From: a virus
Lineage: Duplodnaviria; Heunggongvirae; Uroviricota; Caudoviricetes
Reading direction: 5' to 3' (one strand)
DNA length: 64,000 nt
Virus record (IMG/VR): IMGVR_UViG_3300048574_000421
Part shown: piece by piece, positions 25,045 to 64,000 of the stretch
Numbering within the stretch: the stretch's first letter is position 1
How the letters are laid out: each line of letters starts with the position of its first letter
Translations under genes and position numbers: made by a program
The notes under the pieces: model-generated
Told to the model about the DNA's origin: nothing
Databases searched by the model: none
The model's input: only the letters and a program-made list of their open reading frames with translations

Positions 25045-25878
25045 TTATTGACAAGATAGACATCTTTTTGCATTATGAGCTTTAGCTACAAAAAGATTAT
25101 TACATTTGATGCATTTTTTTTCATACAACTTGGGATTGTTTTTTTTCGTATCACTAATTTTTTGTTTTGATTTTTCAGTATGAACCTTTCCAAAAAACGA
25201 ATTACCTTTACCTTTTGTCCGAGCACTAATATTCTTTTTTACTTCTTCTGAAAACTTCTTACCCTCAAGACTTTTAGTTATTTTTTGTTTAGACTCTAAA
25301 CTATGTTTTTTGCCAAACATTCCGTTATTTTCACCAGAAGAAGCACGACTTAATTTTCTTTTATGAGATTTAGAAAGAACTCTACCTTTATTTGCATTAC
25401 TTACTTTATCTTTTGCTTCTTGCGTATGTTTTCGTCCATACATACCATTTTTTTCGCCTGCTCCCTTGCCTTTTCTGTTTCTTTTTAACTTTCTAAGCGA
25501 TTTATCAGACAAATTATGTATTCCGTCACCACCATCTGTCAAATTTGTTAAAGGCCCAGTTTTTAAATCTATTCTACCAATTGATTTTATTAACTGTATT
25601 TCAAGTTTAGAAGCATCAACAAAGCTCAAATCTGTTTTTATTTTAATTCTAAAAGCATCTACACCTGTTTCTCTTTTAATCTTACAAATTTTATTTGCTT
25701 TTAATTTATTTGAGTCTTTATGTTTGTAAGCAGACTGTAAGTGGTGATCTATTCTATTTTCTCTTCCTAAACCTATATAAAAGGGTTCAAATGAAAACAA
25801 ATTATCAAAAACAATTGGTTTTCTTGGATCTAAATATGCATAAACATAAAAATCAGTTTTTTGACGATTTAATTTCAT
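25045..25878 (-). mobile_element. free-standing GIY-YIG homing endonuclease with NUMOD3 repeats
   Basis: GIY-YIG core FYVYAYLDP...PFYIGLGRENRIDHH. Three NUMOD3-like DNA-binding repeats (GMYGRKHTQEAKDKVS, GMFGKKHSLESKQKIT, SFFGKVHTEKSKQKIS). A C-terminal CxxC...CxxC. Confidence 0.75.
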
Positions 25879-44900: not shown

Positions 44901-45675
44901 ATTCATCTAAACTTATATGTACGTGGGTTTCTGCTTGAAAACACTCATCATTTATTACAACATCAGCTTCAAGTACAGCTTTTCTAATATCTTCTTTTCT
45001 TTCAAGAACATGCTTTTGAATTTTTTCTTTAAACATGTTCTCTTCATCAATTGCACTGTATTTCAAATCAAATGCACTATGTAAAGTCTGTACAGTACAA
45101 ATATTTATTTGTTTAATATCGCAATGACCACCACCTATTTTCCCAACTTTTATTTGAAACATCTTTTCGAATTCATCAGCAGTTTGTTCAAGTAAATCTA
45201 TTGAATAAACAATGAAAAGAGTTTTTAAATTCAATCGTGCTACAATTGCAGCAGCAATAACAGTCTTGCCACCACCAGTTGCAACTTTTATTACACCACG
45301 TTCAGCTTCAATAGATTTTTCAACAACTTCATGCTGATAATCTCTTAATTGTTTTGAATGCATTTGCAAAGGTTCACCAATAATTGGAACATTACGTGCA
45401 TCTACAACATTAAAAGATAGACGGCAGTCATTTAATATGCTTTCTAATGTCGAATAAAGTCCTGTAGGATAACGAAGTTGTTCACGTTCAAAAAGTGTTA
45501 TATCAAGTTCTATAGTTTCTTTTCTAAATCTCGAATACTCTTCTCGAGAATAAGACATTTCATGCTCAATACGTCTAACAAGATCAGTATTCAATCTTAT
45601 GTTAGGTTTTAAATGAGTCCAAGTGTTTTCTATAACAATATCAAAATCTGCCATATTACTTTCTAATATAATCAA
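41944..45675 (-). CDS. SF2 DNA helicase (UvsW/XPB-like) precursor interrupted by two inteins
   Basis: Motif I KVATGGGKTVIAAAI. Motif II is reconstituted as VVINDE+CH (a DECH box) when residues 245-583 are removed. Motif III SATPYR follows residues 609-1013. Motifs V and VI are GSSVADEGVDIPALGSAI and QRVGRTLRP. Spliced size is about 499 aa. Confidence 0.8.
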   Translation of the reverse strand: MIILESNMADFDIVIENTWTHLKPNIRLNTDLVRRIEHEMSYSREEYSRFRKETIELDITLFEREQLRYPTGLYSTLESILNDCRLSFNVVDARNVPIIGEPLQMHSKQLRDYQHEVVEKSIEAERGVIKVATGGGKTVIAAAIVARLNLKTLFIVYSIDLLEQTADEFEKMFQIKVGKIGGGHCDIKQINICTVQTLHSAFDLKYSAIDEENMFKEKIQKHVLERKEDIRKAVLEADVVINDECFQAETHVHISLDEYMYIKDICENDAITHVLSYNHEKQIFEQKRILRRLITQVSEPWCIITFVFKGKEKLIFCTPSHKFWTKNRGYVQAKDLLESDVLKINANRSRPRFYCKKHRCLHRERVHREKIKFSEQSKLKHFKVRSSLMSKMNKNPVIRERMRLGWLKNFENKTEEEKAIVRERFMNAPKRIKGKEIKPTRLEQAILDLKIPEIRYTGNGKFWLRIGTKPDGKCWSKNPDFKIKNQRKVIEVGNITFWHTKEEIERVKKGFESIDFKCLYLTNEDIEENWEETKLKINTFVFNHDEAVVKSVRMQKKIKDEKRYNIEVEDNHNYFAEGILVSNCHRATAEIYIQMAKLYQNAYYRYSLCLHKKTKVLLADGRECQLSPLYYANKDKFIQVMTFNLIKKILEPKKARIIKIDAKGKRLFELIFENENKEKIRIICAETHLFYVNDINDFKKAIDLTIGDKFSSIEKIKRFCVCGKEVVAPHKYCSDRCKLKESNKIRTKKRKEWWDSLSDDEQVRRKSFLKLGNKASQEFFKNLTKKDREKMSARQKKTMQHLRQEEPEKFERMCHHPNFIDSELVSKRSKKAWSKKTKEERLKIITPMIISGLVSQSRLKREGVKRYAKSVKAIDGHICDSKGEMMLDNWLYKNNISHEIHPNIPGTRCFADFKVKHEGKDFYLEYDGMDRIPYYKDEIYKSLNFNYLVLRREDLKAFRLKQKLSFLLFEDPIITLISKNEIENNEDFLLDLTIEDVGPENQNFFANGVLVHNSATPYRDKSIDKVLDAYSGRQICNIDASFLIERGFLVQPHIYMLDPNEHPRYKYVQKSFRNIYEDYIVNNKLRNEMIVDSCLRLLELGKSVLITVTRLPHGDVLCEMLDKAGVSSVAFIQGEVDGEMRKDLLNKVRKKQLQVLVGSSVADEGVDIPALGSAIMAGGGKSLIKSLQRVGRTLRPYPSAENNEKKEAIIVDFYDRIRYLTGHSKKRMKIYESEPLFKVKKHF
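42637..43851 (-). mobile_element. intein 2 (405 aa) inserted immediately before helicase motif III
   Basis: Block A is CLHKKTKVLLADGRE. Block B is CAETHLFYV. C-terminal blocks are LLDLTIEDVGPENQNFFANGVLVHN followed by the +1 Ser of SATPYR. The internal zinc ribbon is FCVCGKEVVAPHKYCSDRC. The DUF559/Vsr-like module is LDNWLYKNNISHEIHPNIPGTRCFADFKVKHEGKDFYLEYDG. Confidence 0.7.
43927..44943 (-). mobile_element. intein 1 (339 aa) inserted in helicase motif II
   Basis: Begins with Cys (CFQAETHV...). Block B is CTPSHKFWT. C-terminal blocks are YNIEVEDNHNYFAEGILVSN followed by the +1 Cys. The internal module LEQAILDLKIPEIRYTGNGKFW...PDFKIKNQRKVIEVGNITFWH is DUF559/Vsr-like. Boundary codons were checked against the nucleotide sequence. 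Confidence 0.7.
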
Positions 45676-49991: not shown

Positions 49992-50127
49992 ATTGTTTCC
50001 CGTTTTTACCGTTTTTTACTTGGCATATAATAATAAGTTCATAATAAATGCTGTAGAAAATTTTTTAAATATTGATTTTCTCTTGCTGTTTTTTTTAATA
50101 ATTTATGTAAGTCAAAAGGAGTTTAAG

Positions 50128-50553
50128 ATGAATTTCACAGGTGAAGTCAAAAAATTCAAAAAAGTAATAGAGTTTTTTGAAGAAAAACTGAAATACAAAG
50201 ATTTTTCAGTTCTAAAAGAAATAAAGCTAAATATTGGCTATAGTTTTTATGGTGCTTGTATATACCCATATAAATGCAATAACTTTTATTTAATAAAATG
50301 TAGACTCAAAAAACAATCTTATCCCAATTATTCATCTTTTTATATTCGGAAAAAAGAGTCTTGCTTACTTCTTAAAACAATTATGACTTGTGACAATTAT
50401 TTTGATGATATGATTTGGGTAGTTGGCCATGAACTTTTTCATTATTTAAGAGATACACGTCAAATCGAAGGAAAAAACACTGAAGCACAAGCAAACGAAT
50501 TTGGACTTAAGTGCCTTAAAGAATTTCAACGCAACCATTCTACGACTTTGTAA
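50128..50553 (+). CDS. HEXXH zinc metallopeptidase-like protein (ImmA/IrrE- or SprT-like). It is the only plus-strand gene in the window.
   Basis: Motif VVGHELFHYLRD. The probable start is the ATG at 50128, preceded by AAAGGAG at a spacing of 7 nt. The track ORF starts at 49993 but has no RBS there. A sigma-70-like TTGATT ... TAATAA lies upstream at about 50072-50102. Confidence 0.5.
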   Translation: MNFTGEVKKFKKVIEFFEEKLKYKDFSVLKEIKLNIGYSFYGACIYPYKCNNFYLIKCRLKKQSYPNYSSFYIRKKESCLLLKTIMTCDNYFDDMIWVVGHELFHYLRDTRQIEGKNTEAQANEFGLKCLKEFQRNHSTTL

Positions 50554-50625: not shown

Positions 50626-51174
50626 TTAAAAAACTAATTTCCACATCAATGTTAATTGTGAAGCAGCTGTTTTGTTCAAAACGGGAAAGTGCTTTGCATT
50701 TACTCTAGTACCATTGTTCTCAAGTAATGCATTAGCACCACCAAAAAGACCCATTTCAACTATAGGTCCATTTGCTTCAGAAAAATCAAATAACGTAGTA
50801 AACTCAATTTTATTTGTTTTTGTCAATACAGGATTTCCATTATTATCAACATATGTTTTGCTTGTAATAGGTTTTCTGTAAAGCTCACTATACAAAAACT
50901 CTAAATCTGATGTTTCTTCAGGTGGATTCTGAATGTCCCAACCACTACCACCTGTGCCTACAGCTAAAGATACAATTCCTGGAATATGTTCTGCAACATT
51001 AACAATTATACTTGTAAAAGCCCATTGAGCAATAAGTTCACTACAAATATCAACAATCAAGTTGTCATCATGTCTGTCTGGGTTTTTAAGAATCTCTTCT
51101 CTTGTCAAATTAACACCGAGTTTCATCCAGACTTCACCTTTAAGACGAACAATCCCGTTTTCTAACAATTCCAT
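50626..51174 (-). CDS. hypothetical phage structural-like protein (182 aa)
   Basis: Strong GGAGG RBS. Gly-rich beta segments (GIVSLAVGTGGSGWD). It sits between fibre genes. Confidence 0.4.
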   Translation of the reverse strand: MELLENGIVRLKGEVWMKLGVNLTREEILKNPDRHDDNLIVDICSELIAQWAFTSIIVNVAEHIPGIVSLAVGTGGSGWDIQNPPEETSDLEFLYSELYRKPITSKTYVDNNGNPVLTKTNKIEFTTLFDFSEANGPIVEMGLFGGANALLENNGTRVNAKHFPVLNKTAASQLTLMWKLVF

Positions 51175-51185
51175 TTAAAACCTCC

Positions 51186-51293
51186 CTAGAGTTTAATTAC
51201 TTTTTTATTCCCGTTTTTATCTACCAAAACGGCAACTACAGATTCTTTTGGTTTTTGAATCTTTTCAGTGTTTTGGTTTTTTTTCTTATCCAT
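51186..51293 (-). CDS. small lysine-rich ORF (35 aa), not in the ORF track
   Basis: Hand translation gives MDKKKNQNTEKIQKPKESVVAVLVDKNGNKKVIKL*. An AAGGA sits 7 nt upstream. It fills the gap between the giant fibre gene stop and the next gene. Confidence 0.3.
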   Translation of the reverse strand: MDKKKNQNTEKIQKPKESVVAVLVDKNGNKKVIKL

Positions 51294-51303
51294 AGTATTT
51301 TCC

Positions 51304-54300
51304 TTAAGACCAAGTTACTGTATAAACATCTTGTATTCTACACATCTTATTTGTGATAGAAACAGCACCTAAACGATATCTTGTATCATTCAAATATGTA
51401 AAATAAATATCTGGTTGCTTCCCTGATTCAATTGAATATTTTTTTACGAACTCTCCTAGAATAAGTGGTTCTCTAAACTCTGAAATCCTGTCAAAATCTT
51501 CAGGAAAATCTGGGTTAGTAATTGTTGGATCTTCTTCAATACTTCCAGGGTATGGTAATCCAATATATGGTTCTCCAACATAAAGTAAAGCTACACCCAA
51601 AGTAGGTTTATCACACACATGAGCATGAGGCATTACTTCGGGTATTTGAATTCTACCAATTATTTCTCTTGTAATAATTGATTTTCTTTTTTCAATAAGC
51701 ATATCAACAGCATTATTTTCAAGATTAAAATCATCACTTGCTGTATCTTCAACATAGAAATATTCACTACCACCACCAAAAACGCTGTCAGGATCGTTAA
51801 GATAAAATGTCACAATTCTATAAATGAAATATTGATTGTACAAGTATGTCACTTCAATAACATCACCCCAAATAGGTACAGTATCAATAACAACAAGTCC
51901 TGTTAAAGGATCAATACTCAAAACAACAACAGGTGAACCATTAATTGTTACTATTATATCATCTGTTGTTGCAACGTGTGTTGAATCACTAAGAACAGGT
52001 ATTCTACTAATATAAAAGAAATTTTCTGATCCAGTAAACTGAGGTGATACATTGTCTGTGTATGTCTCTAATGCAGCCAAACCTTCACTACAATCTTCAC
52101 GCACATCTTCTTCAAAACGACTTACAAAACTATATTTGAATCTGTCACAAATAGCAGTGTCAGATTGTGTCTCAGCAGCTTGATAACCGTCATAAGCAAT
52201 TTGAGGAACTCTATTACCAAACTGATCTATCACATAATTTCCAAACAAATCTTTTTCCCATAAAAGAACGCAGCCAGCTTGAAAATCAAATGAATCTGTC
52301 CAAGAAAAACGTTGTACTACAAAAACATGTGCAGGTTTAACAAGATTAAAAACGTGCGTTAAATTATTACTTAAAGCAACTAAATCAACACCTGTAAATT
52401 TTTCATTTATAATAATATCAGCTGTAAAAACAAATTGATCAGAAATATCAGAACCTTTTGTGAATACAACTTCAATAATTTTCACATCGGTCCCGAGAAA
52501 CAGTGCAACACCTTCTTCAATTGATGACTTCAAAGATCCTTTAAAAAAAATCGATATTAAAGAAAGAAGCAACCTTCTATAATCATCATGAGAAAGACCT
52601 GTCACAGGTTTTGTATCAAGCAAATAACCTAGTTTTTCATAAAGATATAAAGGTCTTAGTGTATCATAATCTCTATCTAAATCGAGGTCATTAAAACTAT
52701 CTTGGTACCTTGAAAGTTCTAACGAAATCGCTTTATGATGCCCATAAAAGTTAGTCGATTTTGAACGAGAATAATTACTTGCAATATTCTGTTGTATATC
52801 ATTTATGTACTCTAATGCAACTCTATTCAGGTAATTCCTTTTTTTCACTGATGTTGTTGCATAAATATGAGGAATGAAAACATAAGAAAAAACATCCATC
52901 ACATTATTAGAATTGTCTGAAGAATAAATTTTAACAGAGACAGGCACTTTATGCTCAAAACTAAAACTTGGACTTGCAAAAACCAAGTAACCTTTTCCTC
53001 TTTCAATAAAAGAGAAGTTCAAGTTTTCTTCTGGCAAATAAAAATCTACAATGTTTTGTTGCTTAATATCTAAACTTCCAACATTCAACAATAACGTACT
53101 TTCAGTTTGTTCAAATCTTGCATCTATAATTTCAGCTGAATAATCAGGTAAACTATTCAAATACAATTCAATCTTTTTAATTGTATTATAGTTTGACTCA
53201 TAAAAGCTTATCGAAATATCTTTTAATGAATCAACATAAGTTGTCAAAGATTTGTTATAAATTTGCAGTGTTGCTGAACTTGCAGAACCTGTATATTGAA
53301 CTTTTAAAATATTTCTAAAATTAATCTTAAAATCTATACTATTTATATTTACTACAACAGTTTTTATGTTTACACCAGACTGACTATCATCTATAAAAGC
53401 AATTACGTTAGAGTTTGTTGAAACATCTTGAACATTAGGTGCAGGATATGTTTCTCTTACCCAAGGACTTGTCAAATCAGGTTTAATTAAATTAAACTCT
53501 AAAGTAGGCGTTACATTGCCAGCAAAATCTGTTATGTTTTTTACTTTTAAAATCTCTACATCTTGAAAATTCAAAAGTTGTGCTATCGGAGAGATAACTA
53601 CTGTATAAAGAGACTGTGTGCCTGTATAAGAAAAATATGAAGAATTTTTTTGTGTTGAATAAACAATTCCATCAACATCAATCTCAATAGAATCAATGTT
53701 CACACCAGATAAAGAATCACTAACTTGGAATGAAATCTGTGTTGTAGAATCTGTTATTATACAATCTACAGGTGAAAAATTCGATACTTCAGATGCTTCA
53801 AGATCAATATTGACAACTTGCGTCTTAATTGTTTCTATATTACCAGCATTGTCTATAGAAAAGAACTTTAATGTATAAGTTCCAGAAGAAGAGAACTCTA
53901 CAAAACTACCAGAAGGTGATGATATATTAGGATCAGTACCATCTGTTGTATAATATGTAGTAGCAACACCTGATCCTGTATCTACAACAACAAAATTAAT
54001 TATAGAATGTGAAGTATAACCCAGTAAAGGTGCATCTGTTGTTGTCTCTGGAGGTGTGATATCATATTTTACAACAGAAACTCTTTCTTGTTCTATGTTG
54101 CCTACATTGTCAGTACTATAATATGTAATTGTTACAGCACCCTCAACAGGCAATAAAAAGGGTACTCCAGTATACTCAATAAATGCTAAATCATCATTTA
54201 TTCTATAAAAAGTTTGATTTGCTCCTGAATAAACATCAATAACAGTAAAACTAATTTCAGGTTGTGTTCTATACCACCAGTTTTCACCATCAGGTGTTGA

Positions 54301-57300
54301 TGGGTCAATATTAATGATGGTAATAGGAGGATCAGCATCTACATTTAAAAGATTTCCACACGACTTTGTAGTTTCTTCATTTCCCGCAATATCAACAGAA
54401 AAATATTGCACGTCGTAGATTCCAGAAGAACCAAGATTTATTGTTGTCCCTTCAGATGAAACTCTTGAAGGGATTAAACCATCAGTAGTAAAGTAAGTCT
54501 TTGAAACACCAGAACCAGGCATTACATCATTTGGTGTTAACAATATTGTAATTGGAGCTTTTATCCAATCTGTAGTCGTAGGTGCATCGTCTGTAGTCAC
54601 AGGTGCAACTCTATCAAGTTTATAAGGTATTGATTTGATTTTGCTTTGTTTTTGTGGTACACCTGTTCCTAAGACAGTGTTGTTATCATAAACTTGAGCA
54701 TAAACTGAGTGCAAACCATCTTGCGAATAAAATTGCTCTAATGTTCTAGAAAAATGAACAAGGTAATTTACTCTATCATTTGACATGTCAACAAATTTAC
54801 TTACATCATTGTATACTTGTACTTCTGTGATTAAACTTGTACTTTCTAAACCTAAAGCTACTTTCTCAATTCCTATATAATGCGTATAATCTACAAGCAC
54901 TTTATCTTTTAAAGAGTAATGTGCTACATAAACTGCACCAGACAATGGACTTAAGATTGTTACAACTCTACTACCATCAAAAACATAATCTGTATCTTGT
55001 ATTAGAGGAATAGAATTTCTTGTGACTACTAAAGTACCTGACATTGGTACATTACTTAGATAATCAGTTGGTAAAGATTGACTGATGTCGAGATTTTGAT
55101 TGACGTCAATAACTAAAGGTATAGAATTTGCTATTGGTCCAGTAACTAAAATTTCATCATAAAATCCGTCAGATCCCTGAAGAATTTCTACACATACAAA
55201 TTGTTTTTTAGAAATTGATGTTTTTACACACTCTACAGTTTTTACAAACTGATTTGCAAGTTTAAACTTATAGTAAGTAGATGAATAGATATGGTTACTT
55301 GTTTTATCAACAGGCAAATAATCAGGGTTTGTACTTCCAAAACCAATAGTATTTCCAATTGATCTTAATTTATTTACACCTGTTGCCCATAATAAATTAA
55401 AATTATTTGTTGGATTTGTTTCTATTTTAAATGAATAACCTTCAGACACAGAACTTTCAGCTAAACTTACTACATAATTAAATGTACCTACATCATTGAG
55501 TCTGTTTTGGATTTCTGTAGCTAATTGTTGACTTGTATAAGTTCCAGCTGTAATAGTTGCAACTAATGGCACGCCAATTACTTCTTCAAAATCTATTGTA
55601 TCGTTTTGTGCAGTTACAACTATGTGTGTATTTGCTTCAACAACATCTTCATCAATTCTGTTTACGCGATCACTTGACCATAGTTCTACGTTTAAATCGA
55701 AATTATACTTGAACCAACCATTTTCTCCATTTTCTAAAGGATCAGTAACAAATTCAAGTTGTAAATCAGGTTCACGTTTGTCTATAGTGACTTCAAATTG
55801 AGCTTTTTTGACAGCTTCAGTATTTCCTGCTGCATCAACAGAATAATAAAAAATCTTATAAGTATCAGACAATGATAATTCTATTACAGTTCCCTCAACC
55901 CAAGTAGCAAGCTCAAAAGCATCTTCAGGTAACAAATTTTCATCATAATCTAACGAGTAATATGTATGTTCTATGTATGACGAAACATCTGTTGGGAACA
56001 AATGAACAACAACATCATAGTCAATAACGTAAGGTTGATATTGAGGATCAATTAGTGAATAATTTACAGAACTTGAAACTTGCGGATCATGTGATATATC
56101 GTAAGCATAAGCAATATCTATAACATCACCAAAAGAAAGAGGTATACCAGAAAATTTGTAATCAACCTCAAGTCTATCACCAAGATCTATCTGTTGTGTT
56201 CCTATAAGCACAAGATTTCCATCTTGTGTTGAAAGATTTCTGTTTATAGAGTAACTGCAACTTTTTGTTTTATTGTAAACCCTTAAAACATCATCAAAAC
56301 TCGAAAGCACTGAACTTCCAAGACCTAAAAGTTGTATATTAAAATCACCAAGTCTTGTAGAGTTTTCGTTTCTTATTATTGGTAAAACTTCAATTTCATC
56401 TTTGTCAACACCTGTAGCTTGAACAAAAACATATTCCTGTGATTTTGTTATGTTAAAAAATCGAGGTACAGCTACAACATTAGGTTTTTTTACTTTTACA
56501 TGATAAGGGTCAATAACAACAGGGTTTTCATCTATAACTTGTTGATGTCCTGAACCCCTTGTTGTAAAGATTATGCCTTGAAAATTTATTGTGTCATCAG
56601 AAGTAACAGGGTTTGTATAATCAAATTTATACAAAATACGTTGATGATCTTCTTCATTTCCTGCATAATCTATTGAATAGATTTCAAGATAATGTTCGCC
56701 TTGATTTGGAATTTGTATCTCAGTACCAACAACATACTCTTGCCAACAAGTCTCGTCCCATCTGTAATAAGTTCTATATACACCTGAAAGATTATCTTCA
56801 GTCGACAGTGTAATTATAGGATTTGTTATATACCAACCATTATTTCCATCAGGTTCGAAACTATTATTTACAGAAGTAACAGGATTTTCTGAGTCAAGTT
56901 TATAACGTTTTGATGCAATTTGACTTTGATTATCGTCATTATCTACTGAATAATATTCGATTTGCCAAAAATTATCAGCAGGAATTGTAAAAGGTACTGT
57001 GTATGGGACAAAAACAACAGTCTCAGTAAATGGAGACAGAAGTAGTGCATTTTGACCAAAAACTTCTTGAGTAGCATCATTACTTAAAACAGGTAAAAAT
57101 CTTATTTCTGAAGTAGAACTACCTGTTCCTGCTGTAGGTGACGTTAAAGTAACATATCCATTTCCAGACAAACCATCAGGGCCTGTCTCAGATGCAATAT
57201 TCTCTCCTGTAATAGAATTTATTGCGCCAATAATTTCTGTGATAGTAGTTTGAAAAGGTATGACACCTCTTAAATCAACTTCAAAAAATTGACCAGATTG

Positions 57301-59298
57301 ATCAATTTCTAGTCTTATAAAATAGTTTTCAGATAAATTAACTGTAGCAGAAATATCTACAGTACTTGTATATTTCGCTGTAGTTGTTACTCCTTCAGGA
57401 TACAACTTATACATTATCTCTTTAATACCAGAAGGATCAGTAGCTGCAATACTTATCTCAGGTGATGTTTTGTACCACCCATTATTTCCATCAATATGAA
57501 AACTTTCATAAATATATGTATCTGGTCCTGCAGTATCAATAAGAATTCTTATATAGTTAGTTTTTACAACTTCAATATTACCTGCAAGATCAACAGAAAA
57601 ATATTTTACTGTGTAAAATCCTGTTTCTGTTATTGTAACAAATGATCCTGAAGTAGAGCTTGTCGTAGGTGTCGTTCCATCTAGTGTATAATAAGTTTTA
57701 TATACGCCAGAAAAAAGATCTGATGTATAAAAATTAATTGTAGTAACACCTTTATGTGTTCCTGGTGTTATATCATCTTGCGTTACAGGTGGTTGTGTAT
57801 CATACTTAAAAAATGAAGTTTGTATATCTTCTATATTTCCAGCAACATCTTCAGAATAATACTGTACTGTATATATTCCTTCACTAGGTAATGAAAACGA
57901 AAAAGGTAAATCACTAACATCAATCTCAATAAAGCTTGCAGAGTTTATTCTATAAAAAGTCTTTAATACACCTGAACAAGGTAGATTATTAGTGCCAAGA
58001 GGATCTGTCGCATTCAAAGTTATTACAGGATTTGATTGATACCAACCATTTTCATTTGGCAAAATGTTAGCAGTACAACTTGTTACAGGTGGTACATCAT
58101 CAAGTCTTAAATAATCTGTTTTTATTTGTTCAATGTTACCATTATTGTCTACAGAGAAAAATTTTATTGGTATTTCGCCCTGTCCAACAAACGGAAATCT
58201 TGTAACATTGTTAGGACGATTTGGACCAAAAGATGATGACGTATTAGGATCAGAGCCATCTATAGTGTAATATGTTCTAAACACACCAGAAGGAGTGTCA
58301 TGTTCTGTATTTGCATAGTCTACAGCAGTAAGTTCAACAATAGCACTTGGACGTCTATTCCAACTTTGACAAAAACTTATGTTACTTGTTGTTACAGGAG
58401 GCGTTGTATCTGTCAAACCTCCTGGAACTTGTACTATTGTTATTGTTATGGGAAGTGATGTTCCTGTTGCACCATGATTATCTGTTGCAACAGCAGTAAG
58501 TATGTGTGTTCCTATTGTCAAACCAGATAAAACAAAGCTATAAGGAGCATATAGATCTTCTCCTATTTTTACTGAATCAACAAAAAACTCTACTTTTTCT
58601 ACTGTACCATCAGAATCTGTCGTATTTGCTCTTACAAGAATATTTGCACCGTAAGCAAATTGAGCACCATCAAAGGGTAAAGTTATTGTGCAAGTTGGAT
58701 CAGAATTTACTATAACATGAACTGGTAATGAAGTTGCTGTTTCATATGCATCATTTGTAGCTACAGCAGTAAGTGTTTTAAATCCACTTGAGACACCTGT
58801 TAAAGTAACAATATAAGGTTCAGATATAGCATAGCCTACGCTCTCAGGTCCTGAACCTTGATCCATAAAAAACTCTACATTTAAAATAGTATGACCTGGC
58901 GTTACTTCAGCTTCAATTGGGAAAGTCGCTGGTACAGTAGTGAAAATTGTACCTTCAGCTGGAGACACTATGTCACATTCAAACACAGCACTTACAACTT
59001 CAACAAAAACAGGTGTTGATGTCGTAATTGCACCAAACTCGTTTGTGACTTTTGCAGTTAAAGCATAAGAGCCTTCTGTCACACTTGGTATGGTCCAAGT
59101 ATAAGGAGCAGTCGGGTCTTCTCCTACTTTCACACCGTCAAGAAAAAACTCTACAAGAGTTACAGTTGCAAATTCTGATGTTGTTTCTACATTTATAGTA
59201 ATATCAGAAGGCGATGTTTGAAAAACATAACCATTTGTAGGCGACGTTATTGTACAATGTGATGCCATCCATTGAAAAATTGGATAAATGTCTGCCAT
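51304..59298 (-). CDS. giant repeat-containing tail fibre/adhesin (2664 aa)
   Basis: Three N-terminal tandem Ig-like repeats (VEFFLDGVKVGEDPTAPY, VEFFMDQGSGPESVGY, VEFFVDSVKIGEDLYAPY). These are followed by about ten repeats with the chitobiase/hexosaminidase C-terminal-domain-like signature (YYTxDG(S/T)DPxxSS ... Y(T/D)VxY(F/Y)S(V/I)DxAGNxE). Confidence 0.8.
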   Translation of the reverse strand: MADIYPIFQWMASHCTITSPTNGYVFQTSPSDITINVETTSEFATVTLVEFFLDGVKVGEDPTAPYTWTIPSVTEGSYALTAKVTNEFGAITTSTPVFVEVVSAVFECDIVSPAEGTIFTTVPATFPIEAEVTPGHTILNVEFFMDQGSGPESVGYAISEPYIVTLTGVSSGFKTLTAVATNDAYETATSLPVHVIVNSDPTCTITLPFDGAQFAYGANILVRANTTDSDGTVEKVEFFVDSVKIGEDLYAPYSFVLSGLTIGTHILTAVATDNHGATGTSLPITITIVQVPGGLTDTTPPVTTSNISFCQSWNRRPSAIVELTAVDYANTEHDTPSGVFRTYYTIDGSDPNTSSSFGPNRPNNVTRFPFVGQGEIPIKFFSVDNNGNIEQIKTDYLRLDDVPPVTSCTANILPNENGWYQSNPVITLNATDPLGTNNLPCSGVLKTFYRINSASFIEIDVSDLPFSFSLPSEGIYTVQYYSEDVAGNIEDIQTSFFKYDTQPPVTQDDITPGTHKGVTTINFYTSDLFSGVYKTYYTLDGTTPTTSSTSGSFVTITETGFYTVKYFSVDLAGNIEVVKTNYIRILIDTAGPDTYIYESFHIDGNNGWYKTSPEISIAATDPSGIKEIMYKLYPEGVTTTAKYTSTVDISATVNLSENYFIRLEIDQSGQFFEVDLRGVIPFQTTITEIIGAINSITGENIASETGPDGLSGNGYVTLTSPTAGTGSSTSEIRFLPVLSNDATQEVFGQNALLLSPFTETVVFVPYTVPFTIPADNFWQIEYYSVDNDDNQSQIASKRYKLDSENPVTSVNNSFEPDGNNGWYITNPIITLSTEDNLSGVYRTYYRWDETCWQEYVVGTEIQIPNQGEHYLEIYSIDYAGNEEDHQRILYKFDYTNPVTSDDTINFQGIIFTTRGSGHQQVIDENPVVIDPYHVKVKKPNVVAVPRFFNITKSQEYVFVQATGVDKDEIEVLPIIRNENSTRLGDFNIQLLGLGSSVLSSFDDVLRVYNKTKSCSYSINRNLSTQDGNLVLIGTQQIDLGDRLEVDYKFSGIPLSFGDVIDIAYAYDISHDPQVSSSVNYSLIDPQYQPYVIDYDVVVHLFPTDVSSYIEHTYYSLDYDENLLPEDAFELATWVEGTVIELSLSDTYKIFYYSVDAAGNTEAVKKAQFEVTIDKREPDLQLEFVTDPLENGENGWFKYNFDLNVELWSSDRVNRIDEDVVEANTHIVVTAQNDTIDFEEVIGVPLVATITAGTYTSQQLATEIQNRLNDVGTFNYVVSLAESSVSEGYSFKIETNPTNNFNLLWATGVNKLRSIGNTIGFGSTNPDYLPVDKTSNHIYSSTYYKFKLANQFVKTVECVKTSISKKQFVCVEILQGSDGFYDEILVTGPIANSIPLVIDVNQNLDISQSLPTDYLSNVPMSGTLVVTRNSIPLIQDTDYVFDGSRVVTILSPLSGAVYVAHYSLKDKVLVDYTHYIGIEKVALGLESTSLITEVQVYNDVSKFVDMSNDRVNYLVHFSRTLEQFYSQDGLHSVYAQVYDNNTVLGTGVPQKQSKIKSIPYKLDRVAPVTTDDAPTTTDWIKAPITILLTPNDVMPGSGVSKTYFTTDGLIPSRVSSEGTTINLGSSGIYDVQYFSVDIAGNEETTKSCGNLLNVDADPPITIINIDPSTPDGENWWYRTQPEISFTVIDVYSGANQTFYRINDDLAFIEYTGVPFLLPVEGAVTITYYSTDNVGNIEQERVSVVKYDITPPETTTDAPLLGYTSHSIINFVVVDTGSGVATTYYTTDGTDPNISSPSGSFVEFSSSGTYTLKFFSIDNAGNIETIKTQVVNIDLEASEVSNFSPVDCIITDSTTQISFQVSDSLSGVNIDSIEIDVDGIVYSTQKNSSYFSYTGTQSLYTVVISPIAQLLNFQDVEILKVKNITDFAGNVTPTLEFNLIKPDLTSPWVRETYPAPNVQDVSTNSNVIAFIDDSQSGVNIKTVVVNINSIDFKINFRNILKVQYTGSASSATLQIYNKSLTTYVDSLKDISISFYESNYNTIKKIELYLNSLPDYSAEIIDARFEQTESTLLLNVGSLDIKQQNIVDFYLPEENLNFSFIERGKGYLVFASPSFSFEHKVPVSVKIYSSDNSNNVMDVFSYVFIPHIYATTSVKKRNYLNRVALEYINDIQQNIASNYSRSKSTNFYGHHKAISLELSRYQDSFNDLDLDRDYDTLRPLYLYEKLGYLLDTKPVTGLSHDDYRRLLLSLISIFFKGSLKSSIEEGVALFLGTDVKIIEVVFTKGSDISDQFVFTADIIINEKFTGVDLVALSNNLTHVFNLVKPAHVFVVQRFSWTDSFDFQAGCVLLWEKDLFGNYVIDQFGNRVPQIAYDGYQAAETQSDTAICDRFKYSFVSRFEEDVREDCSEGLAALETYTDNVSPQFTGSENFFYISRIPVLSDSTHVATTDDIIVTINGSPVVVLSIDPLTGLVVIDTVPIWGDVIEVTYLYNQYFIYRIVTFYLNDPDSVFGGGSEYFYVEDTASDDFNLENNAVDMLIEKRKSIITREIIGRIQIPEVMPHAHVCDKPTLGVALLYVGEPYIGLPYPGSIEEDPTITNPDFPEDFDRISEFREPLILGEFVKKYSIESGKQPDIYFTYLNDTRYRLGAVSITNKMCRIQDVYTVTWS
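53830..58300 (-). repeat. array of about ten CHB_HEX_C-like about 80-aa domain repeats inside the giant fibre (approximate bounds)
   Basis: Recurrent FFSVDNNGNIE / YYSEDVAGNIE / YFSVDLAGNIE / FFSIDNAGNIE strings. The first is located near 58130-58175 and the last near 53835-53861 by matching codons. Confidence 0.5.
58432..59253 (-). repeat. three tandem about 90-aa Ig-like domain repeats at the N-terminus of the giant fibre (coding repeat)
   Basis: Residues about 16-289 repeat the pattern S-P-x-x-G-x-x-F ... VEFFxD ... Y ... T-A-x-A-T-(N/D). Confidence 0.55.
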
Positions 59299-59368: not shown

Positions 59369-59767
59369 TTATGATTCTGGTTCGTTCATAAACCAAGTCG
59401 TATTAAAATCCCAGTTTTCAAAAACATCAAGTGTTCCTTTTACTGTCATCACGTTTGTCGTTTTACCAAAACCTTCAACTGAAGTAGAAATACCTGAAGT
59501 TTGTGTATCCCAATAAGATGGGCCCAAACTAATCCATTTTGCATAAAGCGTCAAATCAAATGTTGCAAAAAACGTGCTATACTCGAAATAATCTGTGCCA
59601 GAGCCATCAGGTTGTGTATTCCAGCAATAAAAAAAATAATCATCTTTTACTAAATCACCATGCGGTAAAATAGACACCGATGTTTCTTGCAGATAAGGAC
59701 TATTACTATCTACAGGTGCTGTGCCACTAGTATTACCATTACCTTGATATGTAATTACAATTGCCAT
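59369..59767 (-). CDS. Listeria-Bacteroides repeat domain protein (132 aa)
   Basis: ITYQGNGNTSGTAPVD ... FFYCWNTQPDGSGTDYF ... LTLYAKW fits the about 70-aa Listeria-Bacteroides (InlB B-repeat-like) domain. Confidence 0.55.
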   Translation of the reverse strand: MAIVITYQGNGNTSGTAPVDSNSPYLQETSVSILPHGDLVKDDYFFYCWNTQPDGSGTDYFEYSTFFATFDLTLYAKWISLGPSYWDTQTSGISTSVEGFGKTTNVMTVKGTLDVFENWDFNTTWFMNEPES

Positions 59768-59789
59768 AATTTTCTCTCATTTAATTATT

Positions 59790-61676
59790 TCAACTTATAG
59801 TAGCAACAAGGCCACCATTTATAATACTTGTCCATTTTGCATAAAGTACTATGCTATCATTGCCAACTCTATAATAACTACCTGGGAAAAAATCAATTCC
59901 TGTACCACTTATACTAGTGTTCCATGAGTAAAATACTGCACTTTCTTTTACTAAAGTCCCAGGTGTAAGTATCAAAAAAATGTCCCCTGTAGTGTATTCT
60001 CCTGGGTCGACTGGTACAACACCTCCAGTATTCCCATTGCCTTGATATGTAACTGTGTATAAAGATGTTGCTTCATACGCACCAATACTTGGTGGATTAA
60101 AATAAGGTCTTCCTAAAATATCAAAATTAACACTAGTTTGTAAACCTGAATGATAACATGGACTTGATTGATCTATTGAAAGAGGATCTTGACCAACCCC
60201 TAAAAACAACGGATTTTCAAGGACATTATTTGAGTTTTGAAGATCTGTAATTGCTGATCTAGTAAAATCAATATGTAAATTACTTGGTCCACTTATGAAT
60301 TGAAAAGCATTATTTAAAAAATAAAATTTTTCAAAATCAAGATAAGTATAACTAATTGTTGCACTTGCAATATTATTAAAAGAATTTGCAATCACTGAAC
60401 CTTCAAAAGTTATACTTTCGCCTCCAGTAGTGAATTTCATAATGTCACCACCTGTTACTGCTGCATAAATATCACCATTATAATCTTGACAAACACCAAA
60501 ATAATTTCTTGGGTGTGAATCAATTGCAACATAATCTCCAATACCTTCTAACTGAACATAGACGCCACCACTTTGAACAACAGCAAATATATCGCCATTA
60601 GGAGAAGAATTTATTTGTTTCCATGACCTTGGTGTTTGGTTTAATGGAATGAAAGAAGCTCCATCGTCTTCACTAACATAAATATCACCATTACTAACAC
60701 AAGCGAAGATAATACCATAAGGTGCAACAGTAATTCCACTCCAGTAATTATCAACAATTCCTAAAGAAACAAAAGCTCCAATTCCTCCAGTTTGTTTCCA
60801 TATACCATAAGTTCTAGAACCTTGAGGAAGTTGAACTGAACCATTTGTAAGATACACATCCCCATTAGGAGCCACAGCAATTGCAGATATAGAAATATTA
60901 CTATTAACTACAGCTTGAACTGCGTCAAAATCACCAATTCCATTTGTTTGTTTATAAACACCTGTAGAAGTACAAGCATAAATGTCACCATTAGGTGCAG
61001 CAGCAATTGCACCACTCCAGTTTCTTTGTGTAATAGCTAATGGATTAAAAGTACTTCCACCTGCATCTCTTTTATAAAGATACCCATATGTGGCTATTGA
61101 CACATAAATATTGTTAGATGGATCTACTGCTAATTGTTTCCAGTTTCCTGATGTTTGACCTGTACCTACAAATCTGTCAAGTGGTCCTTCGTCACGTAAA
61201 TAAACAGCATCACCGATAAAGTTTTCAAATGTATTACATGAAACAGAAATGCTTGTTGTTCGACTATTGCAATAGATTGCATTTTGCGTTATATTATTGC
61301 CATTAAATCTACATCTTGAAATATCAAAATTCCCATCACAATAAACAAATAAAGCATCTTCACTATCTGTTAAAAATGAAATATTTTGAATTAACACTCC
61401 ATCAGGGTTTGTACCATAAATAGTACAACTACTCATATTTAATTTATCTGTAAGTGAATCTTGTCCTATCAAACTAGCACCATTAAATGTATACCACATC
61501 CACTCATCAGGTTCGTAAACTTCACCATGGACATAGACAACATCACCAGAAACTAATTCAAAAATAGAATGACCATCTAGTCCAAGAAACAACTCATACA
61601 AAGATATAGCTGCAGTAGCTCTTGAATCGTAAGGATATGTATTTGAGCCTGTTGCTTCTACATAATATGTCGCCAT
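59790..61676 (-). CDS. fibre-associated protein with beta-propeller-like repeats and a C-terminal Listeria-Bacteroides repeat
   Basis: Recurrent (A/S)PNGD(I/V)(Y/F)A blades (APNGDIYACTSTGVYKQ, APNGDVYLTNG, SPNGDIFAVVQSGGVY, DYNGDIYAAVTGGDIMKF). The C-terminus is TVTYQGNGNTGGVVPVD...FYSWNTSISGTGIDFF...VLYAKW. Confidence 0.6.
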   Translation of the reverse strand: MATYYVEATGSNTYPYDSRATAAISLYELFLGLDGHSIFELVSGDVVYVHGEVYEPDEWMWYTFNGASLIGQDSLTDKLNMSSCTIYGTNPDGVLIQNISFLTDSEDALFVYCDGNFDISRCRFNGNNITQNAIYCNSRTTSISVSCNTFENFIGDAVYLRDEGPLDRFVGTGQTSGNWKQLAVDPSNNIYVSIATYGYLYKRDAGGSTFNPLAITQRNWSGAIAAAPNGDIYACTSTGVYKQTNGIGDFDAVQAVVNSNISISAIAVAPNGDVYLTNGSVQLPQGSRTYGIWKQTGGIGAFVSLGIVDNYWSGITVAPYGIIFACVSNGDIYVSEDDGASFIPLNQTPRSWKQINSSPNGDIFAVVQSGGVYVQLEGIGDYVAIDSHPRNYFGVCQDYNGDIYAAVTGGDIMKFTTGGESITFEGSVIANSFNNIASATISYTYLDFEKFYFLNNAFQFISGPSNLHIDFTRSAITDLQNSNNVLENPLFLGVGQDPLSIDQSSPCYHSGLQTSVNFDILGRPYFNPPSIGAYEATSLYTVTYQGNGNTGGVVPVDPGEYTTGDIFLILTPGTLVKESAVFYSWNTSISGTGIDFFPGSYYRVGNDSIVLYAKWTSIINGGLVATIS

Positions 61677-61702
61677 AATTTTTCTACTCTCATATTAGAT
61701 TA

Positions 61703-64000
61703 TTAATCACCTTGTACTTGTATTATCATACCAGAACTATAACATTTATTAACAGGAATTGCAGAATTTTTGCTTCCTGCAAATCCTGCAACAACTATAT
61801 CTTTTTTGGGAGCTTTTATCTCTGCACCTAATCTTGTTATCTGATATTCTGTAGCAATGCTGCCTACTTTGTTACCTGACATACCTAGTTTTGAATAAAT
61901 AGAACTTTCAGTTGGTGAACTTAAATCAAAAGTTGCTAAAATAACATTGTCAACATAGAAGTTCATTTTTACACCAAGTCTCTCACATGTCAAAGAAAAC
62001 TCATGATTTAACATGTTTGCATGACTATAGATAAGTGTCGAAGTTCTTTCGTGCATTGCGTAAATTTCAACTCCACCTGGTAAACTCAAATAATCTTCTC
62101 TATATGACACTACTTTAAAACCTGTAACATCTACTTGTTCATAACTATCAAGTAGAGCACGAGTGACATATGTCAATTCGCTTGCATTACTACCACAATT
62201 TTTTATTGTAAAATCAAAGAACAACTTAAACGTTGTTCTATTCAAAAATAAAACGACACTATCTTGATAATATCTTGGTGGAGCAAAATTTTGTTTCCAC
62301 AAAATATTCATTCCTGAAGTAGAATATGTGGGTGTAAATTCATTTGGATCATGACGTGTTTCTACTTGATTACAAATTATTTCATCTAAAGAACTACAAT
62401 CTGTATCGACAATTAATTTATTTGTTGTTTTGTAAGTTACATTACTTTGAGAGAAACAATTAGTAAAAACACAATAATAAGCTTCTTGAGTAAAACCACT
62501 ACCAGATACACAAAGCACATCACCCAAAGAAAAACATTCTGACATAAAACCGTATAGAAACCCTGCAAAACCACCAACACCTATTGAAGATTCAGCTATT
62601 ACATTACTTAAAGCACCACAACGTTCACAAGTAGACGAGTTAATACTACCCCCAAACCCGCCAATCTGATTACTTACATTATGTACTTCTATGTTACTTC
62701 TTGAGAAACAAAAATCAAAGGTATCATTACTACTTTGACCTATAAACCCACCTACACAACTATAACTTTCATTTACAGATTCGCTTTTTATATCACCAGA
62801 ACTTCGGCAATTAACATAAACACTTGTACTTGAATGTCCGCAAAAACCACCTACCCAAAGACCTCCATTATCAACATCACTTGTCGAATAACAGTTTTCA
62901 AATCTTGATGTAGTGTTTTCACCTACAAAACCTCCTACTCTCGTTCCTCCTCTAAAAATAAAGTCAACATAACTCACCATTCTATTCCATCGACAATCAA
63001 CATTTCCTGTAGAATAACAATTTATTATTGTTGCTGAAATAGAACCTACAAATCCACCAATGTTCTCATTGCCAAGCACACTTCCCGTACTATAACTATC
63101 TCTTAATTCAAAGTTTGAAGAAAAAAAACCAATTAATCCTCCAACATTCAATTCACCTTCGACATTACAAGTAGAATAAAGATTTGAACAGTCGCTTTCA
63201 AGTGAAGAAAAAGAACCTATTAAACCACCTGTCCTATTGTATCCCTTTACAACACCTTGTGAATAACAATTGTTTACTGTTGTGTATAATGAGTTGCCAA
63301 CTAAACCACCTGTATTGTCGCTTCCAGAAATATCTACAGATGTATGACAATTGTTTAAACTTCCATATATGCAATAACCTACAAGACCACCTGCATTAAT
63401 AGGTGAAGAATATAATTGATGTGGCATTATAGTGCATGTTGAATGGCAATTTTCTAATGAAACATCATAACCATAACATGCAAATGTTCCACAATCGACA
63501 TTACTTGTAAGAACAACATCAGCACTACAATTTAAAAAATCCATATGAATACAATTAGTCATATATGCAGATGTCTGAAATGACGATATCACTCCTGAAA
63601 CAAAACAATTGTTAAAAGAACCTCTTTCTGTTGTTCTAACAAGTCTATAACAAGCAATAGCACCTGCATATGAGTAAAAATGTTCATTGCCAGCAGTAAT
63701 ATTTACATCAATCAAATTTATATTAGAGAAATTAGAATTTTCACATATACCAAACAAACCTACATAATACATTGTCTCTCTATCTATATAGAGATTTGTA
63801 ATACTAAATCCGTTTCCATCGTAATTGCCTGCAAAAACATTATGATATGTCGGATTTTCACCTTCTAAAGATGCAATAGGTTTGAATCCTTTTCCTTGAT
63901 CCCAAGTTAAAGTAACAGAAGCATCAATATTTGTTGTTTGAATGTAGTTGTCATGTAAAGCATAGCCAGGAGAACCAATTAATTGTAATTTTTCTATTGA
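61703..64000 (-). CDS. GLUG-motif repeat protein, 5'-partial (the gene continues beyond the right window edge)
   Basis: About ten repeats of about 28 aa (xGG(L/F)(V/I)GxxxxxxxxNCYSxGxVxG). The ORF track starts it at the Met at 63772. Hand translation of 63773-64000 in the same frame has no stop (...SIEKLQLIGSPGYALHDNYIQTTNIDASVTLTWDQGKGFKPIASLEGENPTYHNVFAGNYDGNGFSITNLYIDRETMYYVGLFG...). Confidence 0.65.
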   Translation of the reverse strand, partial: SIEKLQLIGSPGYALHDNYIQTTNIDASVTLTWDQGKGFKPIASLEGENPTYHNVFAGNYDGNGFSITNLYIDRETMYYVGLFGICENSNFSNINLIDVNITAGNEHFYSYAGAIACYRLVRTTERGSFNNCFVSGVISSFQTSAYMTNCIHMDFLNCSADVVLTSNVDCGTFACYGYDVSLENCHSTCTIMPHQLYSSPINAGGLVGYCIYGSLNNCHTSVDISGSDNTGGLVGNSLYTTVNNCYSQGVVKGYNRTGGLIGSFSSLESDCSNLYSTCNVEGELNVGGLIGFFSSNFELRDSYSTGSVLGNENIGGFVGSISATIINCYSTGNVDCRWNRMVSYVDFIFRGGTRVGGFVGENTTSRFENCYSTSDVDNGGLWVGGFCGHSSTSVYVNCRSSGDIKSESVNESYSCVGGFIGQSSNDTFDFCFSRSNIEVHNVSNQIGGFGGSINSSTCERCGALSNVIAESSIGVGGFAGFLYGFMSECFSLGDVLCVSGSGFTQEAYYCVFTNCFSQSNVTYKTTNKLIVDTDCSSLDEIICNQVETRHDPNEFTPTYSTSGMNILWKQNFAPPRYYQDSVVLFLNRTTFKLFFDFTIKNCGSNASELTYVTRALLDSYEQVDVTGFKVVSYREDYLSLPGGVEIYAMHERTSTLIYSHANMLNHEFSLTCERLGVKMNFYVDNVILATFDLSSPTESSIYSKLGMSGNKVGSIATEYQITRLGAEIKAPKKDIVVAGFAGSKNSAIPVNKCYSSGMIIQVQGD
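62540..63690 (-). repeat. GLUG-type tandem coding repeats (approximate bounds)
   Basis: GGLVG / GGLIG / GGFVG / GGFIG / GGFGG / GGFAG recur every 27-30 residues, each followed by NC(Y/H)S. Confidence 0.5.

Follow-up and report, generated by a model that had tools for sequence, protein, structure and literature searches.

The stretch of DNA analyzed in the current study (64,000 nucleotides, referred to below as the window) belongs to the IMG/VR record IMGVR_UViG_3300048574_000421, a virus of the Caudoviricetes. Its minus strand carries an open reading frame (ORF) with an ATG start at 51304..59298 (stop codon at 51304-51306), which was confirmed as real and encodes a giant protein of 2664 amino acids (aa). 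The evidence presented here suggests that this protein is probably the third baseplate wedge subunit (T4 gp7/P2 gpI/Mu gp48 class) of an uncultured huge myophage, bearing a projecting arm. The G+C content of the window is 30%, and almost all of its ORFs lie on the minus strand. Neither the whole protein (tblastn) nor 20 kb of the window (megablast) had a match in 50,697 phage records, and the orthologues found in a large protein database were all metagenomic, on contigs of up to 424 kb, indicating that the window comes from an uncultured huge phage.

The N-terminal part of the protein consists of three tandem Ig-like domains of the Big_7 type (aa 12-292, 58423..59265, minus strand; all further features of the giant gene are on the same strand). 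The Pfam family Big_7 (PF17957) was matched with 108.8 bits against a cut-off of 24.1, and an in-house hidden Markov model (HMM) placed the individual copies at aa 12-104, 107-199 and 200-291, with 131-146 bits per copy. A search of PDB sequences with the whole protein returned relatives of the Big_7 region only, among them 9kvu_A (E 4e-20). The three copies form an accessory tip, which is missing in most orthologues.

A second class of repeat covers aa 297-1840 (4.6 kb), and is made up of seven intact units, two units split by nested domains and one doubtful unit. The best model for this class was the OmpL47-type beta-barrel domain NF047446 of NCBIfam (276.3 bits, cut-off 40, E 6.7e-84, nine stretches). 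The Pfam families CHB_HEX_C_1 (PF13290, 50 bits against a cut-off of 22, three stretches) and Fn3_assoc (PF13287, 40.7 bits against a cut-off of 23) were matched as well. The Leptospira OmpL47 equivalog NF047441 (Lepto_OmpL47) scored 117.7 bits, below its cut-off of 250, so the domain type alone is shared with that protein.

According to an in-protein HMM, the intact units (about 90-100 aa each) lie at aa 297-399, 400-499, 500-587, 802-892, 1562-1653, 1654-1745 and 1746-1840. Units U1-U3 (aa 297-587, 57538..58410), which are of the OmpL47-type/CHB_HEX_C-like kind, are followed by U4 (aa 588-801, 56896..57537), which is interrupted by a highly conserved nested insert of about 120 aa (aa 649-768); its halves (aa 588-648 and 769-801), when joined, scored 36.6 bits with full model coverage. 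The intact unit U5 (aa 802-892, 56623..56895) separates U4 from U6 (aa 893-1172, 55783..56622), where a nested beta insert of about 180 aa (aa 912-1092) divides halves (aa 893-911 and 1093-1172) that together gave 45.1 bits, again over the full model. U7 (aa 1173-1561, 54616..55782) is a doubtful, degenerate unit around a variable multi-domain insert of about 300 aa (aa 1206-1505), since the candidate halves (aa 1173-1205 and 1506-1561) reached only 4.6 bits as the best of 30 splice combinations. The array ends with the intact units U8-U10 (aa 1562-1840, 53779..54615), which, like U1-U3, were found by both the in-protein HMM and NF047446. Two unit subtypes were distinguished: type A, with the motif YYTxDG..P, found in four to five units only, and type B, with the motif GWY...FYRxN.

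The repeat structure was confirmed by comparing the protein with itself. When the protein was searched against itself by BLAST in chunks, each query region being masked, 58 off-diagonal matches were obtained, with E values down to 2e-17, which is far above chance; the chunked masking was required, as an unmasked self-BLAST of the whole protein returns the identity match only. At the DNA level, units share 43-58% identity in pairwise comparisons, and exact repeats within the gene reach 17 nt at most, indicating that the units are too diverged for homologous recombination. These results agree with the original prediction, made from the sequence alone, in its claims of tandem repeats, of three Ig-like domains at the N-terminus and of a gene stabilized by the divergence of its units. 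Its count of about ten CHB_HEX_C-like repeats over about 4.5 kb was correct in extent and in nine of the units, while the tenth is doubtful and the proposed YYTxDG signature does not characterize the whole array. It overlooked the nested inserts, a third type of tandem domain and the C-terminal 500 aa, which are not repetitive.

The array is followed by three more beta-sandwich domains (aa 1841-2148, 52855..53778), the first two being of an 'SGV' Ig-like type. The segments aa 1841-1945 and 1946-2040 are mutually related (hhalign probability 95%), and represent the third tandem type. No relationship of the three nested inserts to one another or to the C-terminal beta domain was detected. Next come a helical module (aa 2150-2375, 52174..52851) with a KPAH motif at aa 2321, which is a candidate wedge module of the gp7/gpI/Mup48 class, and its conserved extension (aa 2376-2510, 51769..52173), in which a beta domain is confidently predicted (aa ~2405-2490) and an R..C pair is invariant (aa 2400-2403). 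The motif HAHxC (aa 2558-2562, 51613..51627) marks the border between the conserved core and a hypervariable, low-confidence C-terminal tail (aa 2563-2664, 51307..51612).

HAHxC occurs once in each orthologue and is invariant in all 23, as are a few other residues of this family besides the R..C pair; the tail after it measures 73-723 aa. The motif is specific to the giant proteins, being absent from standalone homologues of the C-terminal module. No known motif family was identified for it. It might bind a metal or be a site of processing, and could perhaps control the variable C-terminal tail.

AlphaFold2 (AF2) models were computed with the orthologue alignment. For aa 585-1565 the model is a string of beta domains with a mean confidence (pLDDT) of 81 and a global score (pTM) of 0.46. 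In the C-terminal model, the three beta-sandwich domains of aa 1835-2145 were confident (pLDDT ~85-90); they were followed by a helical region of low confidence from aa ~2150, the confident beta domain at aa ~2405-2490 and a disordered tail. A Foldseek search of the PDB with both models gave generic monomeric tandem-Ig matches only (SiiE, an ice-binding adhesin, GhpA, mastigonemes and macroglobulin domains). In BFVD, the matches included gp189 of Bacillus phage G (24% identity over 200 columns) and two 'baseplate wedge' entries, all with low TM scores.

Orthologues P0001-P0013 are 44-92% identical to the protein, and P0016-P0025 are 31-34% identical, with lengths from 2148 to 3493 aa. Despite this spread, the unit HMM found an equal layout in 23 of 23 orthologues, including those with only about 31% identity. 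Three intact units come first, then two split units with one intact unit between them, and a long gap separates these from the last three intact units. Thus, the array is not a cassette of variable copy number. The differences in length come from the N-terminal add-on, from the second and third nested inserts, which are rich in gaps and poorly conserved, and from the C-terminal tail. The first nested insert is among the best-conserved stretches of the protein, with 63% identity at aa 701-750 in distant orthologues. The suggestion in the original prediction that the array is prone to recombination and a source of host-range variation therefore fails for the ten units, and survives for the termini only.

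The segment before the first unit is the most variable part at the N-terminal end. It measures ~0-6 aa in most orthologues, which thus begin at U1 (residue 1-6) and have no N-terminal anchor; it is 87 aa long in P0025 and 210 aa in P0004. The query and the three relatives nearest to it have 296 aa before U1, and the longest segments are those of P0005 (838 aa) and P0006 (1203 aa). The segment holds zero, two or three copies of Big_7, and in its two longest versions (P0005 and P0006) also Listeria-Bacteroides (Flg_new) and Kelch modules.

A large gene at the end of a baseplate block that is rich in Ig-like domains and variable at its termini might encode a classical receptor-binding tail fiber, i.e. 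a homotrimer attached by one end, in which the number of repeats tunes reach or host range. Some of the BFVD entries found by the fold search are likewise named 'tail protein' or 'tail fiber-like'. The scan of the whole protein, on the other hand, matched no PHROG tail-fiber family, and the organization of a trimeric fiber (N-terminal attachment domain, shaft and distal C-terminal receptor-binding domain) was seen neither in the sequence nor in the AF2 models, which show beta-sandwich beads and no coiled-coil, beta-helix or triple-helix shaft. Since most orthologues lack an N-terminal anchor, the unit number is constant and the conserved module is homologous to proteins at the wedge position and not to fibers, a classical fiber is considered very unlikely.

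The constant layout has a second possible explanation, according to which the protein is a wedge subunit whose array is a packed scaffold that enlarges the baseplate periphery, similar to the outer baseplate of phiKZ, and is not an arm or adhesin. A core strictly conserved in number and order is expected of a part with fixed geometry, and the conservation of nested inserts fits the same view. In phiKZ, the large outer baseplate consists of dedicated scaffold proteins on the wedge protein gp128 (PMC13250141). Against a packed scaffold, the exchangeable distal modules (Big_7, Kelch and Flg_new) are typical of ligand binding and adhesion, the low pTM of the array model despite its high pLDDT suggests beads without fixed packing between domains, and the proteins closest in structure are adhesins and filaments of extended shape. 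This explanation is the main rival for the arm and adhesion step, but on balance appears unlikely.

The gene order was examined at four orthologue loci, L001 (424 kb), L003 (398 kb), L004 (149 kb, encoding a protein 83% identical to that of the window) and L014 (151 kb, from a distant clade). All of them showed the same order: an Ig-rich giant of 1546-1882 aa, a 154-170 aa protein, a gp25-like protein of about 496 aa, a Baseplate_J protein, zero to four variable Glug/PKD/Flg_new proteins, the orthologue of the target, a Lys-rich ORF of 35-44 aa, a protein of about 180 aa and replication genes. The gp25-like assignment is based on the C-terminus of the ~496 aa protein (Sheath_initiator, E 1.4e-4; phrog_975 and phrog_43, both 'baseplate'). 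The Baseplate_J neighbor (1063-1178 aa) scored 56-64 bits against a cut-off of 21.1, and matched phrog_6 ('baseplate wedge subunit'). No gene separates the target from Baseplate_J in L003 and L014, and in L001 and L004 the variable cassette lies between them. In the relatives, the gene thus has the position of a third wedge subunit, i.e. one copy per locus after a gp25-like and then a Baseplate_J gene.

This position also bears on whether the protein belongs to the tail at all. Ig-like arrays with a C-terminal anchoring domain are found among decoration proteins of the Hoc type, and OmpL47-type domains are known from bacterial surface proteins, so a head decoration protein or a secreted or cell-surface adhesin carried as cargo might be envisaged. 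No obvious N-terminal signal peptide was present when the sequence was read by eye (no predictor was run), and the position after gp25-like and Baseplate_J genes is kept in the four relatives. Together with the homology to gp189 of phage G, a virion protein assigned to the baseplate (see below), these observations make a function outside the tail extremely improbable.

The C-terminal region (aa 1835-2664) was used in an exhaustive phmmer search of 1.84 billion representative sequences. Residues ~2155-2345 (in some matches to ~2510) aligned with residues ~20-230 (to 400) of many proteins of 260-1500 aa. In a word-indexed protein search the domain alone found two proteins only, and an alignment query was required; this query retrieved a standalone family from phage contigs as long as 398 kb, with most members near 270 aa. 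Four standalone homologues (264-423 aa) are encoded immediately downstream of a protein of 1142-1155 aa, which is homologous to the Baseplate_J neighbor of the target (blastp E 1e-59 to 1e-79, at three loci with DNA). At these loci a gp25-like gene precedes the Baseplate_J homologue, and two of the three have an annotated fiber-like gene (collagen or laminin-G) downstream. The profile of the domain family matched exactly one ORF at each baseplate locus examined, either a standalone gene or the C-terminal part of a giant.

The same profile matched gp189 of Bacillus phage G (1109 aa) at residues 14-395 (E 1.9e-37), and in a pairwise blastp comparison residues 6-231 of gp189 aligned with aa 2152-2373 of the target (E 5.8e-11). 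In phage G, gp188 is Baseplate_J-like (E 1.9e-50) and gp187 is gp25-like, and the genes for gp187, gp188 and gp189 are all located downstream of the tape measure gene. In a preprint on phage G, gp188 and gp189 were described as 'P2 gpJ/I-like' with HHpred models of Mu gp47 and gp48, and both proteins were detected in virions by LC-MS/MS (10.1101/2024.12.16.628780). The target is therefore homologous to a virion component, the location of gp189 in the baseplate being an assignment at the level of annotation and not of structure.

Direct comparisons with the classical wedge families were weak but consistent. Although the whole protein matched no PHROG family, the excised domain of the target matched phrog_1160 ('baseplate protein') with an E value of 5.8e-6, as did 5 of 31 family members (best E 1.1e-12). 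Five of the 31 members also matched PF10076 (Phage_Mu_Gp48; best E 1.9e-5), with 22-25 bits against a cut-off of 37.4. In hhalign, a nine-member Mu gp48 profile was collinear with the module over 170 columns, including matches of the terminal motifs LLPxG..W and KPxHT.Y; with the single Mu gp48 sequence the KPAH motif alone was aligned (probability 7%). The use of the nine-member profile thus raised the coverage, but not the confidence.

Several points weigh against the assignment to the wedge. The target itself has no match above a curated threshold to a gp7/gpI/Mup48 family; its domain matched no Pfam family, and the Phage_Mu_Gp48 matches in Pfam come only from relatives and are sub-threshold. 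The alignment with the nine-member profile has an E value of 0.0034 and a probability of only 9.5%, no sequence signal to P2 gpI or T4 gp7 was obtained with hhalign (T4 gp7 probability 0.2%), and the domain-family profile found nothing at E <= 1 among PDB sequences. The predicted helices of the module (aa ~2151-2172 and 2182-2206) have a pLDDT of 40-60, too poor for a verdict on the fold. In addition, the module is N-terminal in all other members of the family and follows about 2150 aa only in the target giants; for helices expected to enter the core of the wedge, an extension of this size in front is an unusual topology. The Baseplate_J gene of this phage should be located past base 64000, i.e. 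outside the window, so the gene context is deduced from the 83% identical relative. Finally, this group of phages is known from metagenomic sequence only.

Taken together, the gene position, the occurrence of one family member per locus and the homology to a virion protein annotated in the gp7/gpI/Mup48 class argue for a third wedge subunit, and this is regarded as the probable identity of the protein. In solved contractile baseplates, a wedge consists of two subunits of the gp6/gpJ/Mup47 type and one of the gp7/gpI/Mup48 type, the latter being peripheral and carrying docking sites for fibers (PMC9942802, PMC10457771, PMC6300606). In one study, the peripheral part of the gp7-like subunit was regarded as a hotspot of evolutionary re-engineering (PMC8894135). 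The target would accordingly be expected to fill the role of T4 gp7, P2 gpI, Mu Mup48 and TssG of the type VI secretion system (T6SS), with aa ~2150-2510 as its wedge-forming module. Domain arrangement, conservation, homology and synteny were read directly from the data, and the stoichiometry would follow by analogy: the helices of the module would join two copies of the Baseplate_J-type protein into one wedge, and there would be six copies of the giant per virion.

An addition of about 2150 residues precedes this putative wedge module, comprising the three Big_7 domains, nine to ten OmpL47-type units with their three nested inserts and three further Ig-like domains. The combination of high pLDDT with low pTM, and the nature of the structural analogues, suggest that the added domains may form a monomeric arm outside the baseplate, arranged as an extended or flexible string of beads. 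The core of this proposed arm is architecturally fixed, whereas the C-terminal tail is exchangeable, as is the distal tip at the N-terminus, which consists of Big_7, Kelch or Listeria-Bacteroides modules or is absent altogether.

We infer that the most likely function of the tip is weak, multivalent binding of cell-surface glycans, and that the Glug/PKD/Flg_new proteins of the neighboring genes may dock onto the arm. A role in contact with the cell surface is plausible, given that the gene lies in the tail/baseplate block of a phage. The original prediction of a fiber or adhesin holds with respect to the adhesin-type beta-sandwich domains and the gene block, but not with respect to a classical tail-fiber organization, since most orthologues have no N-terminal anchor, the anchor-like module is near the C-terminus and the family is that of a wedge protein. 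It is tentatively proposed, as a possibility that is still doubtful, that wedge subunit and cell-sensing appendage are one polypeptide in this lineage. Each of six wedges would then have a covalent monomeric arm of about 22-25 domains with a swappable tip. At a rough 3.5-4.5 nm per domain (our own estimate), such an arm would measure on the order of 80-100 nm if extended, and binding would be relayed to the contraction trigger through a single chain and not through separately docked trimeric fibers.

Upstream of the giant gene, a variable cassette (59369..63772, minus strand) encodes Flg_new/Glug proteins of 132, 628 and 689 aa, and corresponds in the relatives to the genes between Baseplate_J and the target. 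No PHROG family was matched by these three neighbors. They are candidate fibers or receptor binders. The cassette differs even from that of the 83% identical relative L004, and Flg_new modules are shuffled among neighboring genes. The 689-aa Glug protein aligned only with the C-terminal 690 aa of a 1170-aa protein in L004, indicating that it may be truncated or split near 63772.

Downstream of the giant gene, a Lys-rich ORF of 35 aa, MDKKKNQNTEKIQKPKESVVAVLVDKNGNKKVIKL (51186..51293, minus strand), starts 10 nt past the stop codon. Homologues of 35-44 aa are found at the same position in L001, L003, L004 and L014, and the ORF looks like a conserved micro-protein. It is followed by a gene for a 182-aa protein (50626..51174, minus strand; phrog_5417), which is conserved in all relatives (57-94% identity). 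Its orthologue in L003 gave a weak, sub-threshold match to PF25691, 'baseplate wedge 3 tail fiber network component' (E 8e-4), and this partner may be a further part of the baseplate acting with the giant.

An ORF of 186 aa with a TTG start (49993-50553) is the only sizeable plus-strand ORF of the region that does not overlap a minus-strand ORF. As L004 has a 142-aa gene on the opposite strand at the equivalent place, a conserved, divergently transcribed gene may separate the tail block from the replication block.

A second giant, located just upstream of the gp25-like and Baseplate_J genes, was found in the relatives (L001 1-496, L003 1-4610 and L014 1-3449; outside the window). It is 1546-1882 aa long and contains Ig domains of the HYDIN/ASH/Cep192 type. 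The tail block of this lineage therefore has at least two very large Ig-array proteins.

PHROG scans showed that the rest of the window carries a T4-like replication and recombination module, including UvsX, a gp32-like single-stranded DNA-binding protein, SbcC/SbcD, primase, DnaB-like and other helicases, a ligase-like protein and a homing endonuclease. The homing-endonuclease-like ORF (25045-25878, minus strand; phrog_314, E 5e-23) lies between the SbcD-like and UvsX-like genes. One of the helicases (41944-45675, minus strand) is 1243 aa long, and its helicase halves (aa ~26-254 and ~1014-1227) are about 750 aa apart. Its orthologues in L001 and L004 (980-984 aa) carry Intein_splicing, that of L001 also with a faint LAGLIDADG match, and the 1243-aa protein thus probably contains an intein as well, with an insertion that is larger or double.

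Hardly any huge phage (200-500 kb) has been cultured, and annotation of the adsorption machinery of these phages is practically absent. The wedge assignment of the giant gene provides an anchor for annotating the baseplate block across a metagenomic lineage. The parts that vary and probably face the host are located at the N-terminal end (the tip), behind HAHxC (the tail) and in the adjacent Glug/PKD/Flg_new cassette, and not in the fixed ten-unit array. The latter is a caution that tandem domain repeats in structural genes of phages need not vary in copy number. If the wedge assignment is true, the size range of the gp7-class 'evolutionary hotspot', about 180-1100 aa, is extended to 2150-3500 aa, with the addition being N-terminal.

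Among known systems, phage G provides the closest parallel. Gp189 shares the wedge module with the target and the gene order gp25-like, Baseplate_J-like and then gp189, is detected in virions, and, as for the target, is encoded by the gene that closes the tail block of a huge myophage. The two proteins differ in that the module of gp189 is N-terminal and is followed by about 700 aa, whereas the target has about 2150 aa of Ig-like and OmpL47-type domains before the module, and HAHxC with a short variable tail after it.

Mu Mup48 (180 aa), P2 gpI (176 aa), gp17 of Vibrio phage XM1 (242 aa) and Pam3 gp23 are likewise encoded immediately after Baseplate_J, and these small wedge subunits are near in size to the standalone homologues of the target module (264-278 aa). 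Their sequence similarity to the target is below all confidence thresholds, and none has a domain array. T4 gp7 (1032 aa), the initiator of the wedge, belongs to the same functional class, enlarged by additional domains at the periphery; together with gp6 it makes up the (gp6)2-gp7 heterotrimer, and peripheral proteins dock onto it (PMC10457771, PMC6300606). It differs from the target in having no detectable similarity and no tandem OmpL47/Big_7 array, and in being 2.6 times shorter.

The array itself has its parallels in bacteria. OmpL47-type multi-beta-barrel proteins and CHB_HEX_C_1/Fn3_assoc repeat proteins have the same repeat unit, but these are bacterial surface or secreted proteins, whereas in the target the units belong to a phage baseplate protein and two to three of them host nested domains. 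The best structural analogues (Foldseek E 1e-7 to 1e-9) were SiiE, the ice-binding adhesin MpIBP, the GhpA grappling hook and mastigonemes, which like the target array are strings of beta-sandwich beads. The likeness is at the level of the fold only (7-12% identity, whole-model TM <0.2), and these proteins are non-viral and anchored in other ways. The repeat domain families and the class of wedge subunit are thus known. What is new is the architecture: a protein of 2150-3500 aa with a wedge module near the C-terminus, a conserved ten-unit array with nested domains, swappable tips and the HAHxC motif, in a previously unannotated lineage of huge phages.

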